Shown piece after piece: positions 40,369 to 48,326 of a stretch of DNA of 64,000 bases. The number at the start of each line of letters is the position of its first letter. Positions within the stretch are counted from its first letter, which is position 1. The notes below the pieces were generated by a model. That model was given only the letters and a program-made list of their open reading frames with translations, ran no database searches and was not told where the DNA came from. Both the position numbers and the translations under genes were made by a program. The stretch comes from Candidatus Bathyarchaeota archaeon (GTDB taxonomy: Archaea > Thermoproteota > Bathyarchaeia > TCS64). The stretch covers positions 10,710 through 74,709 of the forward strand of contig JADHWN010000007.1 of assembly GCA_016783455.1 (NCBI GenBank), read 5' to 3'.

Positions 40369-40389
40369 CGTGGCGGGTCCGGAGGGATT
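40369..40389. repeat. att-like 21-mer overlapping the 3' end of tRNA-Lys
   Basis: Identical to 38182..38202. Covers 2 nt of trailer, the CCA, the discriminator, the acceptor 3' strand and part of the T arm. Confidence 0.85.
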
Positions 40390-40447
40390 CGAACCCTCGG
40401 CCAATGGCTTAAGAGGCCACCGCTCTAACCTTGCTGAGCTACGGACC
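40371..40447 (-). tRNA. tRNA-Lys (anticodon CUU), CCA encoded
   Basis: GGGTCCG-TA-GCTC...CTCTTAA loop...GAGGGTTCGAATCCCTC-CGGACCC-G-CCA. Confidence 0.9.
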
Positions 40448-40553
40448 CACTCGAAACACCCATATTGCGAGACCAGATTTAAATCTTTCAGCCCTCCCGC
40501 TCCCAGGGGCTTAACCAATAAATACCTCCGACAAGATAGAAGGACGAACGAGA

Positions 40554-41294
40554 ATGGCTTTGAACGGAGCCCTTTCAGCATTATACTCATTCTTCGTCAC
40601 CAAGCTGCCTTACATCACCATCGCCGTGTTCCTCCTCGGCGTCACATACAGGCTCCAGAGGTGGCTCTCGGCCCCCAAGGGCCCCGAAGGCCCGCCCCTC
40701 CACTGGCCCTCAGCACTAAAGTACGTCGTCCTCGACGTCGTCCTCTTCAGGAAGACCTACAAGACTGACAAGCTCATGTGGCTCGTCCTCGTCCTCTTCC
40801 ACATCGGAACCGGGGGCATCCTCTTCGGCCACATGAGGGGGTTCCACCTCTGGTCGGCCTCCATGTTCGAGGTCCTCGGCCACGGCTTCGCGGAGTTCAT
40901 GGTTCACACCCTCCCCCTATACATGGGATGGATGTTCCTAGCGACCCAGATCTACCTACTCTACAGGAGGACCCGCCTTGAGGGGAAGCAGCTGCAGTCC
41001 CTGGCAAACGACTACGGGGCCCTGGTCATCCTGCTCATCACCAGCATACTGGGACAGGGGATGAGGATCTTCCCTCCAGAGGCGATCCCCACGGAGACCT
41101 ACAGCGTCGTCTTCATACCCAACCTCATAGTCCTACACCTGGAGAAGGTGCCCAGCCACCACTGGTTCTTCTGGCACGTCCTCTTCACACAGCTCCTGGT
41201 GATGTACCTCCCCTGGAGCAAGCTTGTCCACGTCGTCAGCGGCGTGGCCACCTCGGCCCTCTACGGCTCAAGGAGGAGAAAATATGACCTCTAG
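40554..41294 (+). CDS. NarI/DsrM/HdrE-like membrane cytochrome b subunit
   Basis: 246 aa, 5-6 TM helices with conserved His (FHIGTGG, HHWFFWH). Overlaps the next gene by 11 nt. Confidence 0.7.
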   Translation: MALNGALSALYSFFVTKLPYITIAVFLLGVTYRLQRWLSAPKGPEGPPLHWPSALKYVVLDVVLFRKTYKTDKLMWLVLVLFHIGTGGILFGHMRGFHLWSASMFEVLGHGFAEFMVHTLPLYMGWMFLATQIYLLYRRTRLEGKQLQSLANDYGALVILLITSILGQGMRIFPPEAIPTETYSVVFIPNLIVLHLEKVPSHHWFFWHVLFTQLLVMYLPWSKLVHVVSGVATSALYGSRRRKYDL

Positions 41295-42504
41295 GGACGC
41301 CAAGGAGGCCCTGGGCAAGTTCACCAGGCGCCAGCTCATGGAGCTGGACACATGCGCCCACTGCGCCCTCTGCACGGAGTACTGCCCCGTCTACATGGAA
41401 ACCGAGGAGCCCGGCCACGCCCCGGGAGTGAGGTCCTCCAAGGCCGTGAAGCTCTACGACAAGCAACACGGGCTGAGGGCGCGCATCCTTGGCCCCAGAC
41501 CCGTAACAGACGAGGAGGTCGAGGAGCTCTCCGACAGCGCGTTCAACTGCACCTTCTGCGGACGCTGCATGGAGGTCTGCCCCTTCGGCATCCAGACCCA
41601 CGAACTCTGGAGCAAGGTCAGGGAGGTCGTACACGACCTCGAGGGGACCCCCCGCAACGTCGGGATGCTAGAGGAGATGCTCGACGAGAGCCAGAACCCC
41701 TACGGCCTCGACCCCGACTCACGCCTCGACTGGGCGGACTTCACCGACCTCGAGGAGATACCCGAGAAGGACAAAGCCGAGGTAGCCTACTTCGTCGGGT
41801 GCACCACCGCCTTCAAGGGTGCCAACCACGAGGTGGCATTCGCCACGGCCTCCATACTCAACATGCTCGGCGAGGACTGGACCCTCCTGGGGGAGGACGA
41901 GTGGTGCTGCGGGAGCCCCCTGCTCCTCGCCGGGGACGAGCACAGCGCCAAGGAGTACGCCAAGCACAACGTCGAGGTCCTCGAGTCCAGGGGCGTCAAG
42001 AGGCTGATCACAGGCTGCTCAGGGTGCTACAGGGTGTTCAAGTGGGAGTACCCCAAGCTCCTCGGAGGCGACCTCAAGTTCGAGGTCCTCCACACCCTGG
42101 AGTACCTCCTCGAGAAGCTGGAGTCCGGAGAGCTGAAGCCCGAGAAGACCGACGAGAGGGTCATCTACCACGACCCTTGCGAGCTCTCCCGCCTTGGCGG
42201 GCTCATAGATGAGCCCAGGAAGGTCCTGGCATACCTAGCCAACGACTGGGTGGAGTTCGCCGAGCACGGAATCGACGTCAGGTGCTGCGGAGGAGGCGGT
42301 CTCCTCCAAGCCTCGAACAACGAAGCACGGCTGGCCATTGCCAAGAAGCGGCTCGACGAGGCCAAGTCCCTGGGAGCAGAGATAATCACCTCCGCCTGCC
42401 CCTCCTGCAAGCTTACCTTCGTGGACAGCGCGAGGGAACACGAGGTGGACATAGAGGTCCTGGACCTCGTCGAGCTAGTGGCGAAGCAACTGGGCATTCT
42501 ATGA
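41284..42504 (+). CDS. HdrD/DsrK-like Fe-S oxidoreductase with two CCG domains
   Basis: 'CAHCALCTEYCP', 'CTFCGRCMEVCP', 'CCGSPL', 'YHDPCEL', 'RCCGGGG', 'CPSC'. ATG at 41284. Confidence 0.85.
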   Translation: MTSRDAKEALGKFTRRQLMELDTCAHCALCTEYCPVYMETEEPGHAPGVRSSKAVKLYDKQHGLRARILGPRPVTDEEVEELSDSAFNCTFCGRCMEVCPFGIQTHELWSKVREVVHDLEGTPRNVGMLEEMLDESQNPYGLDPDSRLDWADFTDLEEIPEKDKAEVAYFVGCTTAFKGANHEVAFATASILNMLGEDWTLLGEDEWCCGSPLLLAGDEHSAKEYAKHNVEVLESRGVKRLITGCSGCYRVFKWEYPKLLGGDLKFEVLHTLEYLLEKLESGELKPEKTDERVIYHDPCELSRLGGLIDEPRKVLAYLANDWVEFAEHGIDVRCCGGGGLLQASNNEARLAIAKKRLDEAKSLGAEIITSACPSCKLTFVDSAREHEVDIEVLDLVELVAKQLGIL

Positions 42505-42508
42505 GTGT

Positions 42509-43381
42509 GTGATGATGGGAAGCGTGTATGACTACGGGGTCCTCGCGAAGCCGAAGGTTCTCCTCGCGATGCTCCTCCTCTACGCCTCCTCCTACTTCGC
42601 ATCGGTGGCATACTCAGGCGTCAACTGGGGCGTGAACACCTTCCTGGTGGGGCTGACGGCGGTGGCGATGGCCGTCAGCGGTGCCAACGCCCTCAACTGC
42701 TACCTCGACAGGGACATCGACGCCCTCATGACGAGGACACTCGGGCGCCCCCTCATCACAGGGACCATCGGACCATCTGGGGCTCTTACGTTCAGCGGCA
42801 TCCTGCTCATTGCCTCGTCAATATTAGCCCTCTCACTCGGAACCGTACCCTTCCTCCTCTTCCTGGAGGGTGCTGGGACATACCTCCTCCTGTACACGGT
42901 GCTTCTGAAGAGGAGGACGAGCCTCAACGTCCTCGCGACCGCCCCGAGCGTCGCAGCCCCCGCCTGGTTCGGTTGGTACCTGGGAGGGGCCCAGCTCTAC
43001 CCCGTCGGGCTGCTGATGGGAGTCCTGGTGGCGATCTGGGGGCCCATCCACCTCTGGAGCCTCGTTTATGCCTACTCGAAGGACTACTCCAGGGCGGGGG
43101 TGCCCATGTTCCCCTCAGTTGCCTCTAACGAGAACGCCGTGAGGGGCATCATCGCCGCCCTTGCCGTGCTGATCGCCTCCTCCTACACCTTGGTCCCGTG
43201 GACGAGGACCCTCTTCTACCCCCTTGTCGTCACCCTCATCAACGCCCCCCTGGCGGTAGCGGGCTACAGGTTCTACAGATCGAGGACCAACAAGGCTGGA
43301 TGGTGGATCTTCAAGCTCACGGCCCCCCAGATAGTCGTCGTCCTCCTCGCCTTCATGGCGGAGAGGCTGCTCTTCGCCTAG
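42509..43381 (+). CDS. ctaB: UbiA-family prenyltransferase, heme O synthase-like
   Basis: The 'NCYLDRDIDALMTRTLGRPL' motif is typical of CyoE/CtaB. Confidence 0.7.
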   Translation: MMMGSVYDYGVLAKPKVLLAMLLLYASSYFASVAYSGVNWGVNTFLVGLTAVAMAVSGANALNCYLDRDIDALMTRTLGRPLITGTIGPSGALTFSGILLIASSILALSLGTVPFLLFLEGAGTYLLLYTVLLKRRTSLNVLATAPSVAAPAWFGWYLGGAQLYPVGLLMGVLVAIWGPIHLWSLVYAYSKDYSRAGVPMFPSVASNENAVRGIIAALAVLIASSYTLVPWTRTLFYPLVVTLINAPLAVAGYRFYRSRTNKAGWWIFKLTAPQIVVVLLAFMAERLLFA

Positions 43382-43442
43382 GCGTCAGGGTAATAGTCTT
43401 TTATTTCCCGATACTTGTTAAGATAATACTGGATGGATTAGC

Positions 43443-43871
43443 ATGGTTAGAATCGAGGGAAACGACTTCCCTGAGGACCTGTACTACCACAGGGATCACA
43501 TGTGGGTGAAGGTGGAGGGGGACAAGGTCCGGGTCGGTTACAACGACTGGGCACAGGAGGCGGCGGGGAAGCTCCTGAACCTTAATACCAAGAAGGCGGG
43601 GAGGTCCGTAAAGTCGGGGAAGACCTTGGGCACAGTGGAGAGCGGCAAGTGGGTCGGCCCCCTAAAGTCTCCTGTCTCAGGGGAGATCGTTGAGGTCAAC
43701 GAGGAGGCCCGTAAGGAGCCCTCAATCATCAACGACGACCCCTACGGGAACGGCTGGGTCGCGGTCATCACCCCGTCCGACCTCGACGCCGAGCTAGGGG
43801 GGCTAATCAAGGGTTCCGATGGCGCTGAGATAGAGTCCTGGCTGGCCTCGGAGAAAGCCAAACACACATAA
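43443..43871 (+). CDS. GcvH-like lipoyl-carrier protein with a non-canonical lipoyl-Lys context
   Basis: 'HMWVKVEG', 'TVESGKWVGPLKSPVSGEIVEVNE', 'DPYGNGWVAVI'. Confidence 0.8.
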   Translation: MVRIEGNDFPEDLYYHRDHMWVKVEGDKVRVGYNDWAQEAAGKLLNLNTKKAGRSVKSGKTLGTVESGKWVGPLKSPVSGEIVEVNEEARKEPSIINDDPYGNGWVAVITPSDLDAELGGLIKGSDGAEIESWLASEKAKHT

Positions 43872-43900
43872 ACACCCATCCTCTTTTTAGCAGAACAACC

Positions 43901-44992
43901 ATGGAACGCTGGAGGCTTCTCAACCTAGGATACTCCGAGCCCCTGGTGGCCCAAACATTCTACGAGACCGTGGCGGAGGCCGTCCACAGGGGGATCTCAC
44001 CTAACACCCTCATCCTCCTGCAGCCTGACAGCCCGTACGCCTGCCTCGGCTACCACCAGGACCTGGAGAAGGAGCTGGACCTGAGGTTCTGCGAGGGGGC
44101 GGGCCTGCCCATCATAAGGAGGAGCCAGGGGGGAGGCGCGACGTATCTGGACCGGGGCCAGGTCTTCTACCAGATCGTCTCCAAGGGGAGCGAGATCGTC
44201 CCCAGGAATATCGATGCGATGTTCGAGAGGTTACTCTCGGTGACCGTTGAGACCTACAGGAGACTCGGCGTGCCCGCGGAGTTTAAGCCCCTCAACGACG
44301 TCGTGGTGGAGGGAAGGAAGATCTCCGGGAACGGGGCGGGGATGCACGAGTCAGCATCCATCCTCGTAGGGAACGTGATCCTGGACCTCAACTACGACCT
44401 CATGGCCCGGGTGCTCAGGGTCCCCGACGAGAAGTTCAGGGACAAGATGGCCAGCAGCATGAGGGAGTGGGTGTCCACATTGAAGCGGGAGCTGGGCGAG
44501 GCGCCCCCCGTCGAGAAGGTCCACTACACCTACGCCGCTGCCTTCGAGGAGCTCCTCGGCGTCGAGCTCCACAGGGAGGAGCCCTCCGAGGAGGAGTGGA
44601 GGATCTTCGAGGAGGAAACCAAGCCACGACACACCTCCCGGGAGTGGCTCTACATGGAGGCGCCCCCGTCCCAGCTCAGGGAGGGGAGGGGCGTGAAGAT
44701 CGCCCACGACGTGAAGGTCGTCGAGGCCGACCACAAGGCAGCCAAGCTCATCCGGATAAGGGCCGAGGTGAAGGGGGACGAGATCCTCAGCGCCCAGGTG
44801 AGAGGGGACTTCTTCGCCCTGCCCAAGGAGGCCGTCTTCAGGCTCGAGGAGGCTCTCACGGGCGTGAACCTTGACGAGTCAGCCATCTCCGATGTCGTCA
44901 ACAGGTTCTACGACGAGACGGATGTCCAGATACCCGGAATCAGCCCGGGGGACTTCACGACTGCCATAATGAAGGTCAAGGACCTACTGTAG
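43901..44992 (+). CDS. lplA: Lipoate--protein ligase A
   Basis: 'RRSQGGGATYLD', 'GRKISGNGA' (lipoyl-AMP lysine region), plus a C-terminal accessory domain. Confidence 0.8.
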   Translation: MERWRLLNLGYSEPLVAQTFYETVAEAVHRGISPNTLILLQPDSPYACLGYHQDLEKELDLRFCEGAGLPIIRRSQGGGATYLDRGQVFYQIVSKGSEIVPRNIDAMFERLLSVTVETYRRLGVPAEFKPLNDVVVEGRKISGNGAGMHESASILVGNVILDLNYDLMARVLRVPDEKFRDKMASSMREWVSTLKRELGEAPPVEKVHYTYAAAFEELLGVELHREEPSEEEWRIFEEETKPRHTSREWLYMEAPPSQLREGRGVKIAHDVKVVEADHKAAKLIRIRAEVKGDEILSAQVRGDFFALPKEAVFRLEEALTGVNLDESAISDVVNRFYDETDVQIPGISPGDFTTAIMKVKDLL

Positions 44993-45102
44993 ACCCGCGA
45001 CCTTCCCCTTATTTTTCATTGACCATGCCTGTTTTCAATGGGTAACAAGTCTTGCTCAAAATGGTTAAAAAGAACTGGTGTCTCTGACTGGTTACAATCC
45101 AG

Positions 45103-46653
45103 GTGTCCAATTTGAGTGAAAACCAGTTCTACCTCAGCCAGTACAAACCCGGGGGGGAGAGGTTCCTCCCCGAGAAGGTCTGGATATTCGACACGACCCT
45201 CCGTGACGGCGAGCAGATGCCCGGCGTCACCTACACGATAGACGAGAAGGTCCTCATCGCCCAGCAGCTCGACGAGCTACGTGTCCCCAGGATCGAGGCG
45301 GGGTTCCCCATAACCTCGCCTGGGGAGACCGAGGCGGTGAAGAGGATCGCGGCTCTGGGCCTCGATGCCCAGGTGGTCGCCCTCTCCAGGCCCCTCAAGG
45401 AGGACGTCGACAGGGCCCTAGAGTGCGACGTGCCCTACATCCACATATTCATCTCCACGAGCGACCTCCACATCGAGACCATGATGAAGACCACCCGGGA
45501 GGACGTCCTCAGGTCCGCGGTCGAGGGGATAGAGTACGCTAAGGAGCACGGGGTCTTCGTCGAGTTCAGCCCCCAGGACGCAACCCGCACGGACATGGGC
45601 TACCTCGTCGAGATCTGCAAGGCCGCCGAGGACGCCGGGGCCGAGATGCTCAACATCCCGGACACCGTCGGGGTCATGACCCCTCGGATGACCTTCGACT
45701 TCTTCAAGGAGCTGAAGGCCCAGACCAGGGTCCCCCTGAGCGCCCACGCCCACAACGACCTGGGCCAGGCCACGGCCAACACCCTCGCCTCCATCGAGGC
45801 GGGAGCCGAGCAGGCCCACGTCTGCATCAACGGCCTGGGCGAGCGGGCAGGGAACACGTCCCTGGAGGAGGTGGTGGTCTGCCTGGCGGCCCAGTACGAG
45901 GTCGAGACGGGCATCAACACCAAGAAGATAGCTGAGACCAGCTCACTGGTGGAGAGGCTCAGCGGGGTCTACATGCCCCCGAGCACTCCAATAATTGGGG
46001 ACAACGCCTTTGCCCACGAGGCCGGCATCCATGTCCACGGGCTCCTCAGCCACTCTGGGAACTACGAGATACTCCGCCCCGAGTTCGTGGGGAAGAGGAG
46101 CCGGATAGTCGCGGGGAAGCACGCCGGCAGGCACGGTATCTCCAGCATGCTGGATGACCTGGGTCTGGAGCCCACCCGGGAGCAGTTGAAGGCGGTAGCC
46201 GCAGAGGTGAAGAAGCTCGGCGACACCGGGAAGGTGGTCTCCGACTCTGATCTGTACGCCATCGCCAAGAACGTCATGGACATAACCGCCGACGACAGGG
46301 TGAAGCTTAAGCAGCTTCTGGTGGTCACCGGGAACACCATCACGCCCACCGCCTCGGCGACCCTCCTGGTCGACGGTGTCGAGTACAAGGGCTCTGGGGT
46401 GGGGAACGGACCCATCGACTCGGCCATCAACGCCATCAGGAACGTCGTCAACGGCTTCGCCAACATAACCTTAGAGAAGTTCTCGATGAAGGCCATCACG
46501 GGAGGTACCGACGCCGTCGCCGACGTCACCGTCGCCGTCCGGAGGGGCGAGAAGATGGTGACGGCCAACAGCGTCAACGGCGACACGGTTATGGCGAGCG
46601 TCGAGGCCATCCTGAAGGGCATGAACAGGCTCCTCGTGGAAAGCAACAAGTAG
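45103..46653 (+). CDS. LeuA/CimA-family synthase 1 (2-isopropylmalate or citramalate synthase)
   Basis: 'FDTTLRDGEQMPGV', 'HAHNDLGQATANTL', C-terminal LeuA-dimer regulatory domain. GTG start. Confidence 0.88.
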   Translation: MSNLSENQFYLSQYKPGGERFLPEKVWIFDTTLRDGEQMPGVTYTIDEKVLIAQQLDELRVPRIEAGFPITSPGETEAVKRIAALGLDAQVVALSRPLKEDVDRALECDVPYIHIFISTSDLHIETMMKTTREDVLRSAVEGIEYAKEHGVFVEFSPQDATRTDMGYLVEICKAAEDAGAEMLNIPDTVGVMTPRMTFDFFKELKAQTRVPLSAHAHNDLGQATANTLASIEAGAEQAHVCINGLGERAGNTSLEEVVVCLAAQYEVETGINTKKIAETSSLVERLSGVYMPPSTPIIGDNAFAHEAGIHVHGLLSHSGNYEILRPEFVGKRSRIVAGKHAGRHGISSMLDDLGLEPTREQLKAVAAEVKKLGDTGKVVSDSDLYAIAKNVMDITADDRVKLKQLLVVTGNTITPTASATLLVDGVEYKGSGVGNGPIDSAINAIRNVVNGFANITLEKFSMKAITGGTDAVADVTVAVRRGEKMVTANSVNGDTVMASVEAILKGMNRLLVESNK

Positions 46654-46778
46654 GCCAAGGAAAGAAGCCTATTTTTCCCTCTTTTCATCAAACGATTTGT
46701 ATTCATGTATAGCTGGAGGCTACGGCGATATCCTTATATGACGAGTTTTCTAGCCTATATTCTACCAATCGAAGGAAT

Positions 46779-48326
46779 GTGAAATGGGGTATCGCTTTAT
46801 TAGGTGACTTCAAGGAACACGTAAGATTTTTAGATACTACTCTCCGTGACGGAGAGCAGACACCCGGCGTCTCCCTGACCCCCGAGAAAAAGCTTGAGAT
46901 AGCCAGGCAGCTGGACAAGCTCGGGGTTGAGGTGATCGAGGCTGGCTTCGCCGTGGTCTCCGAGGGGGAGTCCAAGGGAGTGAAGCTTATCGCCTCGGAG
47001 GGGCTGGACGCCGAGATATGCTCCGCGACGAGGGGCGTGATCAGGGACATCGATATCGCCATCGCATGCGGTGTCGACAGCGTCAACATCATCGTTCCAG
47101 TCTCTGACCTCCACATCGAGCAGAAGCTTGGGAAGACCCGTGAGGAGGTCATCGGCATGATGGAGAAGGCCGTGATCCACGCAAAGGACCACGGCATCAT
47201 CACGGAGCTCTCCACCGAGGACGGCTCCAGGACCGACATGGACTACCTGAAGACGGTCATCCGGCACGCCTTGGACGTGGGATGCGACAGAATCGCCCCA
47301 TGCGACACCGTGGGCATACTGACTCCTGAGAAGTCCTACGGCTGGTTCGCGGATCTCAGGAAGGAGTTCCCGGACGCGTTCTTCAGCGTCCATTGCCACG
47401 ACGACTTCGGCCTCGCCGTCGCCAACTCCATCTCGGCCCTCATGGCCGGGGCGGACCAGGTCCACGGGACCATCAACGGCATCGGCGAGAGGGCTGGGAA
47501 CGCCTCCCTCGAGGAGATCGCCGTCACACTCAGGGTGCTCTACAACGTTAAGCACAGCGTCAAGACGGAGTTCCTCTACGAGACGTCGCAGCTGGTCTCC
47601 CGCCTCACCCACATGCACGTGCAGCCCAACAAGGCCATAGTGGGTAAGAACGCCTTCGCCCACGAGTCGGGGATCCACACACACGCCATCTTGAGGAACC
47701 CCCTGACCTACGAGGCTATCGACCCGGAGCTGGTGGGGGCTGTGAGGCACATCGTCTCTGGGAAGCACGCTGGCTCGGCGGGGCTGAACAGCAGCCTGGA
47801 GGACATGGGCCTGGCTCCCTCGGAGGAGGAGTTCAGCGAGATCCTCAGGGTGGTGAAGGCGAGGGGCGATGACGGGGAGAGGGTGACCGACGCCGACCTC
47901 CTGGACATCGCGAGGGACGTGATGTCCCTGGAGATGGTGAACCCCCTGAACCTGGAGGAGTTCATCGTCACCACGGGGAACAAGATCACCCCCACGTCGT
48001 CCGTGAAGCTGAGGCTCAACGGCGACTCGTTCATCGAGGCGGCCACGGGGAACGGCCCGGTGGATGCCACACTCAACGCCGTGAACAAGGCCATCAGCCC
48101 CAGTGCTCGCGCGATCCTGGACACCTACAGCGTCGAGGCCATCACCGGTGGCACAGACGCAATGGTGAACGTCGAGGTGAGGCTGAGGCGGGGCGACCGG
48201 CTGGTGACCGCGAAGGGGGTCAACGAGGACATAGTGATGGCGAGCATAGAGGCTTACCTCAACGGGATGAACGTTCTCCTGCTGCAGGAGGAGCACCCCG
48301 AGAAGAGATGGACAGTCAAAAAGTAG
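46779..48326 (+). CDS. LeuA/CimA-family synthase 2
   Basis: 'LDTTLRDGEQTPGV', 'HCHDDFGLAVANSI'. Paralog of the previous gene. Confidence 0.88.
   Translation: MKWGIALLGDFKEHVRFLDTTLRDGEQTPGVSLTPEKKLEIARQLDKLGVEVIEAGFAVVSEGESKGVKLIASEGLDAEICSATRGVIRDIDIAIACGVDSVNIIVPVSDLHIEQKLGKTREEVIGMMEKAVIHAKDHGIITELSTEDGSRTDMDYLKTVIRHALDVGCDRIAPCDTVGILTPEKSYGWFADLRKEFPDAFFSVHCHDDFGLAVANSISALMAGADQVHGTINGIGERAGNASLEEIAVTLRVLYNVKHSVKTEFLYETSQLVSRLTHMHVQPNKAIVGKNAFAHESGIHTHAILRNPLTYEAIDPELVGAVRHIVSGKHAGSAGLNSSLEDMGLAPSEEEFSEILRVVKARGDDGERVTDADLLDIARDVMSLEMVNPLNLEEFIVTTGNKITPTSSVKLRLNGDSFIEAATGNGPVDATLNAVNKAISPSARAILDTYSVEAITGGTDAMVNVEVRLRRGDRLVTAKGVNEDIVMASIEAYLNGMNVLLLQEEHPEKRWTVKK

Follow-up and report, generated by a model that had tools for sequence, protein, structure and literature searches.

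A five-gene cluster at positions 40554-44992 of the window (by which we mean the whole stretch of 64,000 nucleotides analysed here) joins a membrane cytochrome b and an HdrD-like iron-sulfur (Fe-S) protein, termed K, to a CtaB-like prenyltransferase, a GcvH-fold lipoyl carrier, termed H2, and a two-domain lipoate ligase, LplA. The window lies on contig C5 of G000, a metagenome-assembled genome (MAG; 2.19 Mb assembly, 74.7% complete) of an uncultured, non-methanogenic member of the Bathyarchaeia. We hypothesize that lipoylated H2 is the dithiol/disulfide redox partner of K in a membrane module resembling the heterodisulfide reductase (Hdr) HdrDE. This proposal, which we regard as evenly balanced between true and false, is drawn wholly from comparative genomics and modelling: the divergence of H2 from canonical GcvH (H1), the cluster ligands of K, the recurrence of K homologues beside H2-type genes and a predicted complex of the two proteins.

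An earlier note on this DNA had described five co-directional genes, the first two overlapping by 11 nt, with no gcvT, gcvP or 2-oxoacid dehydrogenase genes nearby. Open reading frames (ORFs) and profile matches place all five genes on the + strand, in the order cytochrome b, K, CtaB-like gene, H2 and lplA, with intergenic gaps of -11, 4, 61 and 29 nt; the overlap holds with the likely K start codon at 41284 (the ORF opens at 41224), and no gcvT, gcvP or E2 gene is present on the contig. For comparison we used G000 together with 40 related genomes, from families including f1 and f4 and from genus g1. Two arrangements are distinguished throughout: form A, in which the cytochrome b, K and CtaB-like genes stand beside H2, and form B, in which a GlcD-like flavoprotein and K do so.

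An additional GcvH paralogue

The lipoyl-lysine of H2, K69, lies in a hairpin that reads E-S-G-K-W-V-G-P and bears the signature E-S-G-K-W-V-G (GKW); the canonical signature, including that of E. coli, is E-S-V-K-A-x-S-D. The motif quoted in the earlier note, TVESGKWVGPLKSP, reads as given there and departs from the canonical H motif. K69, W70 and V71 are invariant in 23 H2 sequences, and positions 41, 42, 68, 70 and 72 separate 50 H2-type from 16 canonical sequences. H2-type proteins match the GCV_H model with lower scores than canonical ones. Against the equivalog model TIGR00527 the protein scores 95.6, below the cut-off of 115.85, and it passes the subfamily model NF002270 (126.7 vs a cut-off of 117); public records label H2-type proteins GcvH. 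H2 is devoid of cysteine, and most members of its family have none or one, which is not conserved.

Two GcvH-family genes were found in G000, H2 and a third GcvH-like type, H3, on contig C83, while GcvT, a canonical gcvH and E2 were not found in this 74.7% complete genome. Its GcvP is encoded by a GcvPA/GcvPB pair on contig C78, with a divergent second pair on contig C59. GcvT is present in 33 of the 40 relatives, with a high-scoring canonical gcvH directly beside gcvT in 30 or more of them, and the pair occurs in the same-genus genomes G002, G003 and G004 (for example at G004:C286 and G002:C1); most likely the canonical gcvT-gcvH pair of G000 lies in the unassembled quarter of the MAG. Because the relatives carry a separate gcvH adjacent to gcvT, H2 is an additional paralogue, as the earlier note had suspected in treating it as something other than the ordinary H protein. 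In G035 (89% complete) GcvT, GcvP, E2 and methyl-coenzyme M reductase (MCR) were not found, yet an H2-type protein is encoded.

A maximum-likelihood tree of GcvH proteins unites the canonical sequences, including E. coli GcvH, and H3 in one group, and places the window H2 outside that group in a Bathyarchaeia clade (support 99/97). Sequences with the H2 signature fall into several clades that surround the canonical one and are not nested in it; as the deep branching order lacks resolution, the tree does not show monophyly of all GKW proteins. Together, the gcvT-gcvH pairs of the relatives, the signature residues and the placement outside the canonical clade led us to reject H2 as an ordinary GcvH.

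Other GcvH-fold and glycine cleavage-like genes were encountered in the same genomes. H3 (153 aa, two Cys, hairpin Y-E-T-I-K-A-A) forms a clade of its own (100/97) and is encoded at G000:C83:2923-5655 (locus L005) in one row on the - strand with genes for an SBF/ACR3-type transporter, a DGC-domain protein and an OsmC-like protein, a row that may constitute a lipoyl-dependent peroxide or arsenic-stress unit. A Pyr_redox-rhodanese fusion is encoded near the divergent GcvPA/GcvPB-like pair at G000:C59:46038-48988 (locus L007:8038-10989), which scores 202 bits, the canonical pair on C78 scoring 370; the pair on C59 was rejected as a partner of H2, being present in roughly half of the family and showing no clear tie to either H2 or K. 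Finally, GcvH-fold proteins that have Arg or Met in place of the lipoyl-lysine (for example S-I-E-S-G-R-R-I and S-V-E-H-G-M-R-V) form a strongly separated clade (100/100). Their genes (L087:13103-13420, L089:12861-13175, L094:6117-6446, L097:4261-4572, L100:6119-6499, L101:6111-6455 and L102:6442-7181) stand directly 5' of glcD-like/K pairs in Nitrososphaeria-type, Geoarchaeota and Bathyarchaeia genomes; the encoded domains cannot be lipoylated and may act as docking subunits.

Cytochrome b and the Fe-S protein K

The best NCBIfam match of the cytochrome b is DsrM (NF038037; 59.4 bits vs a cut-off of 300), with the TmcC and NarI models likewise far under their cut-offs, and K scores 124.7 bits against the DsrK model NF045796 (cut-off 400). 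These scores fall short of DsrMK proper; the HdrED-like make-up proposed in the earlier note stands. Four candidate haem-ligand histidines are present in the cytochrome b, H83 with H93 and H208 with H226. Among 11 orthologues, H93 is kept in at least 90% and the other three without exception; the spacings of 10 and 18 residues resemble those of NarI. K carries two CxxCxxCxxxCP ferredoxin motifs, for two [4Fe-4S] clusters, and two complete five-Cys CCG motifs (Cys 173, 208, 209, 245 and 248, and Cys 299, 334, 335, 372 and 375), and all ten CCG cysteines are invariant among the homologues aligned.

In a sequence search of the PDB, the top solved relative of K is mycobacterial EtfD (9ojn, E 9e-58), with HdrB at about 1e-16. 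EtfD has a C-T pair in its first CCG motif, leading to a linear [3Fe-4S] cluster, and its His583 completes the second cluster; the cavity is closed and the enzyme is non-catalytic (PMC13083937). Pairwise alignment of K with 9ojn_A gives WCCG vs TCTG in the first CCG motif and C-S-G-C vs C-P-H-C in the other, with Gly replacing the capping His583. By its sequence K thus retains the HdrB/HdrD-type rather than the EtfD-type set of cluster ligands, a point that is permissive and not decisive, since GlcF/GlpC-type proteins keep CCG motifs too.

McrA was not found in 40 of the 41 genomes (G000 and 39 of the 40 relatives), G037 being the one exception, and the mixed disulfide CoM-S-S-CoB is therefore unavailable as a substrate. 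The literature leaves the Hdr substrate in such archaea (Bathyarchaeia, Asgard) open (PMC11291895, PMC8407382), one paper calling it an "unidentified heterodisulfide" (PMC11291895).

Recurrence of K beside H2

The order cytochrome b-K-CtaB-H2 (form A) is shared by two families of the order: it occurs in G000, G008 and G009 (f1) and in five f4 genomes. In form B, a GlcD-like protein (FAD_binding_4 + FAD-oxidase_C) is followed by a K that is 50-54% identical to the window K; the pair is divergent from or adjacent to H2 in G003, G015 and G023, and in G035 GlcD and K are fused in a protein of 899 aa encoded directly upstream of H2, at a distance of 46 nt. Within genus g1, forms A and B occupy one slot, between the flanks c19-c21 and H2-lplA-leuA.

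Beyond these genomes, K homologues were surveyed with one genome per species, and a GKW-signature gene was counted when it lay within 8 kb. Such a gene is present at 23 of the 79 species-level loci, where about one co-location would be expected by chance (given one such gene per genome of about 2 Mb), with the reservation that the genomes surveyed are kin and the counts overstate independence. The 23 loci belong to Thermoproteota, Asgard archaea and Desulfosarcina, with Nitrososphaeria-type lineages, Geothermarchaeales, Heimdallarchaeota and Thorarchaeota among them. One cluster (L104) has the order H2, GlcD, K, cytochrome b, K, and two others (L087 and L089) hold both module types, as expected if one carrier links two CCG enzymes. 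The adjacency that the earlier note had asked to see conserved in relatives is thus kept in two families, in form B genomes and far outside the Bathyarchaeia; of the link it drew between a lipoyl carrier and an Hdr module, the recurring adjacency of K and H2 stands, and the qualification is that K lies beside H2 in only part of the genomes. Neither of the two outcomes that the note named as refuting its idea was obtained, and its interpretation is supported as a hypothesis.

Some further gene rows were seen around these loci. In G034 (L053:799-10135) and G037 (L072:58-9512), genes for Nuo/Mbh-like membrane subunits (antiporter-, NuoCD-, NuoH- and NuoI-like) are co-linear with a gene for an HdrC-like ferredoxin, in rows that also hold genes for a 95-aa protein and an HdrB-like CCG protein. 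A GlcD-like/K pair follows the row in G034; in G037 the row is divergent beside H2, after which come LutA- and LutB-like genes. One surveyed locus, L085 (DATLAV010000130.1), is the same stretch as G003:C130, and its public label 'Patescibacteria group bacterium' is probably wrong.

A predicted complex of K and H2

K and H2 were modelled together, each with its own alignment as supplied by the analysis. The predicted complex reached an ipSAE, a measure of the model's own confidence, of 0.72 in three runs, the best of three controls reaching 0.37; the ipSAE mark applied is reached by 58 of 80 solved complexes and by 2 of 110 mismatched pairs. Contacts agreed between runs to at least 95%, with partner pLDDT of at least 88. 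The prediction sets the lipoyl-lysine hairpin of H2 on the CCG cleft of K. On the H2 side the predicted interface is formed by residues 45-73, the hairpin including K69, and overlaps the positions specific to H2; on the K side it is formed by residues 140-155, 177-182, 342-346 and 381-384. These segments of K adjoin the cysteines of the CCG motifs, and both form A and form B conserve them. PDB sequence searches returned no entry with both an Hdr/EtfD-like and a GcvH chain, and recall of a solved complex is therefore unlikely. Two loops of K, after Cys173 and at 152-155, were compared in 112 homologues: they are absent mostly where no H2 is nearby (2 vs 28) and otherwise occur in both classes (44 vs 38), an association that is loose, confounded by phylogeny and not counted as evidence.

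Lipoate ligases and the CtaB-like gene

The two-domain lplA is the most constant neighbour of H2, the pair being present in most f1 genomes, and each genome also has a single-domain ligase; there are thus two ligases, and at least two types of carrier. In G000, an archaeal lipoate-assembly cluster at G000:C58:99808-102741 (L175:4809-7742) encodes, between LipS2 (338 bits) and LipS1 (268 bits), a ligase of the single-domain LplA type. LipA was not found in five genomes of the group. G000 also has a bona fide dihydrolipoyl dehydrogenase (Lpd; NF004947, 627 bits, cut-off 592), so that the module would be an additional, not the sole, route for lipoyl reoxidation. As a general rule, replacement of the L-protein (Lpd) by the module is unsupported for the same reason; five or six f4 genomes that carry the module gave no full-length Lpd match.

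The CtaB-like protein matches TIGR01473 from end to end with 176 bits, under the cut-off of 210, and is nearest to haem O synthases (E 1e-51), other models of the UbiA family matching at 1e-11 or weaker. Its orthologues (at least 44% identity) occur only in form A genomes, and always in the cluster. Five genomes that bear the module, of which four are at least 94% complete, yielded no COX1 and no credible cytochrome bd, which leaves haem O without its usual client; a housekeeping haem O synthase serving an oxidase was ruled out on this ground. We suggest that the CtaB-like enzyme either prenylates the haem of the cytochrome b or makes a lipid-soluble carrier. Menaquinone from the futalosine pathway was rejected as the acceptor, since MqnA/D were not found in five genomes. 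A second CtaB-like gene lies outside the cluster in f4 genomes (G027:C32, G030:C251, G028:C14, G029:C7 and G032:C6); these genes are 34-38% identical to the window CtaB and reach up to 217 bits against TIGR01473, and no oxidase was found.

Features of the locus

The features of the cluster and its flanks are collected in Table 1. A tRNA gene marks the upstream limit, and two TATA-like boxes read by eye, ATTTAAAT (40476-40483) and AATAAATA (40516-40523), lie 31-78 nt upstream of the cytochrome b ATG. Downstream of lplA and a T-run, an unrelated leuA follows. The region 45103-48326 of the window holds tandem genes of the LeuA/homocitrate-synthase family (516 and 515 aa, about 45% mutual identity) and then a leuC-like gene of the aconitase family; the order H2-lplA-leuA is also kept in G003.

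Table 1. Coordinates of the cluster and flanking features in the window
Feature	Position	Strand	Basis or remark
tRNA-Lys(CUU)	40371-40448	-	ARAGORN; upstream limit of cluster
Candidate archaeal promoter region	40476-40523	+	Two TATA-like boxes, by eye
NarI/HdrE/DsrM-type membrane cytochrome b, 246 aa	40554-41294	+	PF02665 E 1.7e-12
K, HdrD-like Fe-S protein, 406 aa	41284-42504	+	PF02754 E 1e-30
CtaB-like UbiA-family prenyltransferase	42509-43381	+	TIGR01473 E 1.3e-51, 176 bits
Spacer between CtaB-like gene and H2, 61 nt	43382-43442	+	T-run CTTTTATTT and TATA-like AAGATAATA, read by eye
H2, GcvH-fold lipoyl carrier paralogue, 142 aa	43443-43871	+	PF01597 E 4e-35
Two-domain LplA	43901-44992	+	PF21948 E 2.4e-39 (catalytic) and PF10437 (C-terminal)
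T-rich run TTATTTTTCATT, terminator-like, 3' of lplA stop	45008-45020	+	Sequence read

A proposed route for lipoyl-bound electrons

In the mechanism that we propose, the adjacent two-domain LplA would lipoylate H2 and make it a dedicated redox carrier. The lipoyl-lysine arm of H2 would enter the cleft that separates the CCG domains of K, where a pair of noncubane-type [4Fe-4S] clusters would cycle the lipoamide between its disulfide and dithiol states, as HdrB/HdrD do with CoM-S-S-CoB. Electrons would run through the two cubane clusters of K to the di-haem cytochrome b of the NarI type, which would exchange them with a lipophilic carrier in the membrane. The CtaB-like enzyme would make a prenylated (haem O-like) haem for the cytochrome b, or the lipid carrier itself. 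Standard redox potentials make transfer from dihydrolipoyl-H2 to the membrane carrier the likely direction, the potential of lipoamide being about -290 mV. In sister genomes, the GlcD-like protein and K would link the same carrier to a dehydrogenase of the D-2-hydroxyacid type.

Candidate reducers of H2 in G000 are the glycine cleavage P and T proteins, a second CCG protein on contig C64 and an Hdr cluster on contig C34. The last (G000:C34:26061-32083; L178:8061-14083) encodes an HdrC-like protein, an HdrB-like protein with two CCG motifs, an Fe-S protein, a flavoprotein of the fumarate-reductase/succinate-dehydrogenase type and an HdrA::MvhD fusion, and sits between the genes for fumarase and malic enzyme in a genome in which no MCR was found. 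It looks like a thiol:fumarate-reductase-like Hdr system, another CCG enzyme in need of a thiol/disulfide. More tentatively still, and with rather less confidence than the pairing of K with H2 itself, we suggest that, across anaerobic bacteria and archaea that are not methanogens, lipoate on GKW paralogues may be the general disulfide for CCG enzymes of the Hdr type and take the part that CoM-S-S-CoB has in methanogens. The present locus would be its membrane terminal, with a cytochrome whose haem O-type haem comes from the CtaB-like enzyme, in organisms that lack terminal oxidases.

Several findings weigh against pairing H2 with K. H2 is tied more strongly and more generally to lplA than to K: in most f1 genomes H2-lplA lacks a nearby K, G011 and G014 carry cytochrome b, K and the CtaB-like gene away from H2, and the kinship of the surveyed genomes inflates the counts of adjacency. 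To judge from its sequence, the spacer at 43382-43442 has terminator- and promoter-like features, and H2-lplA may form a separate transcription unit. The nearest solved relative of K, EtfD, is a wire from electron transfer flavoprotein (ETF) to menaquinone, genes for ETF are present, with two ETF-alpha genes per genome, and GlcF/GlpC-type proteins bear CCG motifs with no known disulfide chemistry. True Lpd in G000 already offers lipoyl reoxidation, the complex score is a model's judgement of its own output on alignments of our making, and for the membrane carrier MqnA/D were not found in five genomes, the classical Men pathway not having been searched.

Much of this evidence would fit an alternative that we consider unlikely, though it survives best, in which two unrelated units happen to be neighbours: cytochrome b, K and the CtaB-like protein would be a generic electron entry of the EtfD/EMO or GlpC/GlcF type, fed by ETF or another flavoprotein, and H2-lplA would be a lipoate-salvage or lipoyl-relay unit, or a spare H protein serving the glycine cleavage system or the GcvP-like pair on C59. 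The many genomes with H2-lplA and no K, the spacer, the PDB match to EtfD, the two ETF-alpha genes and the existence of a second GcvPA/PB-like pair all favour it, as does the use of GcvH as lipoyl donor in relays of the B. subtilis type (Cao et al. 2018). It is opposed by the recurrence of K beside H2 in at least four architectures and several phyla, by the exchange of cytochrome b-K for GlcD-K at one slot beside H2, by the Hdr-type cluster ligands that K retains and by the complex prediction, which passed its controls; moreover, in most of these genomes no E2 was found that a relay could serve, and G035 has H2 though GcvT and GcvP were not found in it.

Electrons might also flow the other way, from K to H2, with H2 a carrier of reductant for thiol defence or repair that serves OsmC/Ohr-type, peroxiredoxin-type or other disulfide reductions, and with K drawing electrons from quinol via the cytochrome b or from D-2-hydroxyacids via the GlcD-like flavoprotein. 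HdrDE normally runs in the reducing direction, Ohr/OsmC peroxidases are lipoyl-dependent, H3 in G000 adjoins an OsmC-like gene, and a PrxQ-like gene follows the Lpd gene. We consider this reading improbable: reduction of lipoamide (about -290 mV) by quinol or lactate would be uphill, no peroxidase gene is linked to H2, and the OsmC context belongs to H3, which lies in a different clade. Least probable by far, and largely refuted, is the view that H2 is a plain glycine-cleavage H protein or the LbpA of sHdr sulfur oxidation, which is favoured by its passing of Pfam GCV_H and NF002270, its public name and the GcvH-like nature and dedicated ligases of LbpA proteins, and is opposed by the gcvT-gcvH pairs of relatives, the missed TIGR00527 cut-off, the differing signature, the lack of Cys in H2, the two-domain ligase in place of a single-domain sLpl, and the presence in the MAG of only one hdrCB pair, in a fumarate-reductase-like context.

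Comparison with known systems

Hdr-like and HdrD/GlcD genes are among the commonest and most highly expressed energy genes in Bathyarchaeia, Asgard archaea and many anaerobic bacteria, and a small, expressible lipoyl protein with a signature and a ligase of its own would make the question of the Hdr substrate directly testable in vitro. If our proposal is true, the principle of sHdr-LbpA would reach beyond sulfur oxidisers into the central energy metabolism of anaerobes, lipoyl-bound electrons would have a defined exit at the membrane, possibly an energy-conserving one, and thousands of genes named "glycine cleavage system protein H" would need renaming. The strict co-inheritance of the CtaB-like gene with the cytochrome, with no oxidase found, is a second problem raised by the locus.

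The closest precedent is the sHdr-LbpA system (Hyphomicrobium denitrificans, Thioalkalivibrio; PMC6067878, PMC10332631), in which, like here, a GcvH-fold lipoyl protein with a ligase of its own is tied to a CCG enzyme and is distinct from the GcvH of glycine cleavage. Its partner is the soluble sHdrC1B1AHC2B2, whereas here it would be a membrane cytochrome b with an HdrD-like protein, or a GlcD-like with an HdrD-like protein. Conserved in LbpAs are two Cys, one N-terminal and one C-terminal, although some archaeal members lack them (Cao et al. 2018, PMC6067878), and that system uses a single-domain sLpl(AB) with LipS1/LipS2; here H2 lacks Cys, the ligase has two domains, and LipS1/LipS2-sLpl are encoded on contig C58. 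Unlike in sHdr-LbpA, the cluster has no sulfur-oxidation context, and its host, a Bathyarchaeon, is anaerobic; when the 75% complete MAG was searched with profiles for an shdrC1B1AHC2B2 cluster, one hdrCB pair only was found, on contig C34, and neither DsrE nor TusA was seen within the window cluster, no search aimed at either having been made. The parallel with sHdr-LbpA that the earlier note drew is therefore upheld for a dedicated lipoyl carrier beside a CCG enzyme, and fails for the conserved Cys, the type of ligase and the sHdr cluster. In the full-text literature, no paper was found that ties GcvH-like proteins to HdrD/GlcD-type enzymes outside sHdr.

With HdrDE (Methanosarcina) the locus shares a NarI-type di-haem cytochrome b and a protein with two [4Fe-4S] motifs and two complete CCG motifs. 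Unlike for HdrDE, no MCR was found (40 of the 41 genomes), so that CoM-S-S-CoB would not be formed, and the linked genes encode a lipoyl carrier, a lipoate ligase and a CtaB-like protein; the similarity of K to HdrB/HdrD models is low. DsrMK(JOP), Tmc and Hmc of sulfate reducers likewise combine a NarI-type cytochrome b with a CCG protein, one that acts on a protein-bound trisulfide/disulfide (DsrC), and DsrC sets the example of a protein serving as the substrate of a CCG site. Unlike in DsrMK, the equivalog scores lie far below cut-offs, no dsrJOP is present in the cluster, and the carrier is a lipoyl protein and not DsrC. In EtfD/EMO (Rv0338c-type; 9ojn; PMC13083937) the chain is likewise made up of a cytochrome b, two cubane clusters and a pair of CCG domains, all in a single fused protein with a C-T motif, the His583 cap and an occluded cavity, where K has CC and Gly.

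Form B is itself one of the GlcD/HdrD ('D-lactate dehydrogenase-HdrD') pairs of Bathyarchaeota, akin to GlcDEF and two-subunit D-lactate dehydrogenases. For these pairs the literature leaves the acceptor in non-methanogens open; a GKW lipoyl carrier stands alongside here and in 23 of the 79 loci. The window differs from such pairs in having a cytochrome b in place of the flavoprotein. Specific to this window, in comparison with all of these systems, are the membrane HdrDE-like form, its exchange at one locus with the GlcD form, the co-inherited CtaB-like gene and the contrast with EtfD in cluster ligands.

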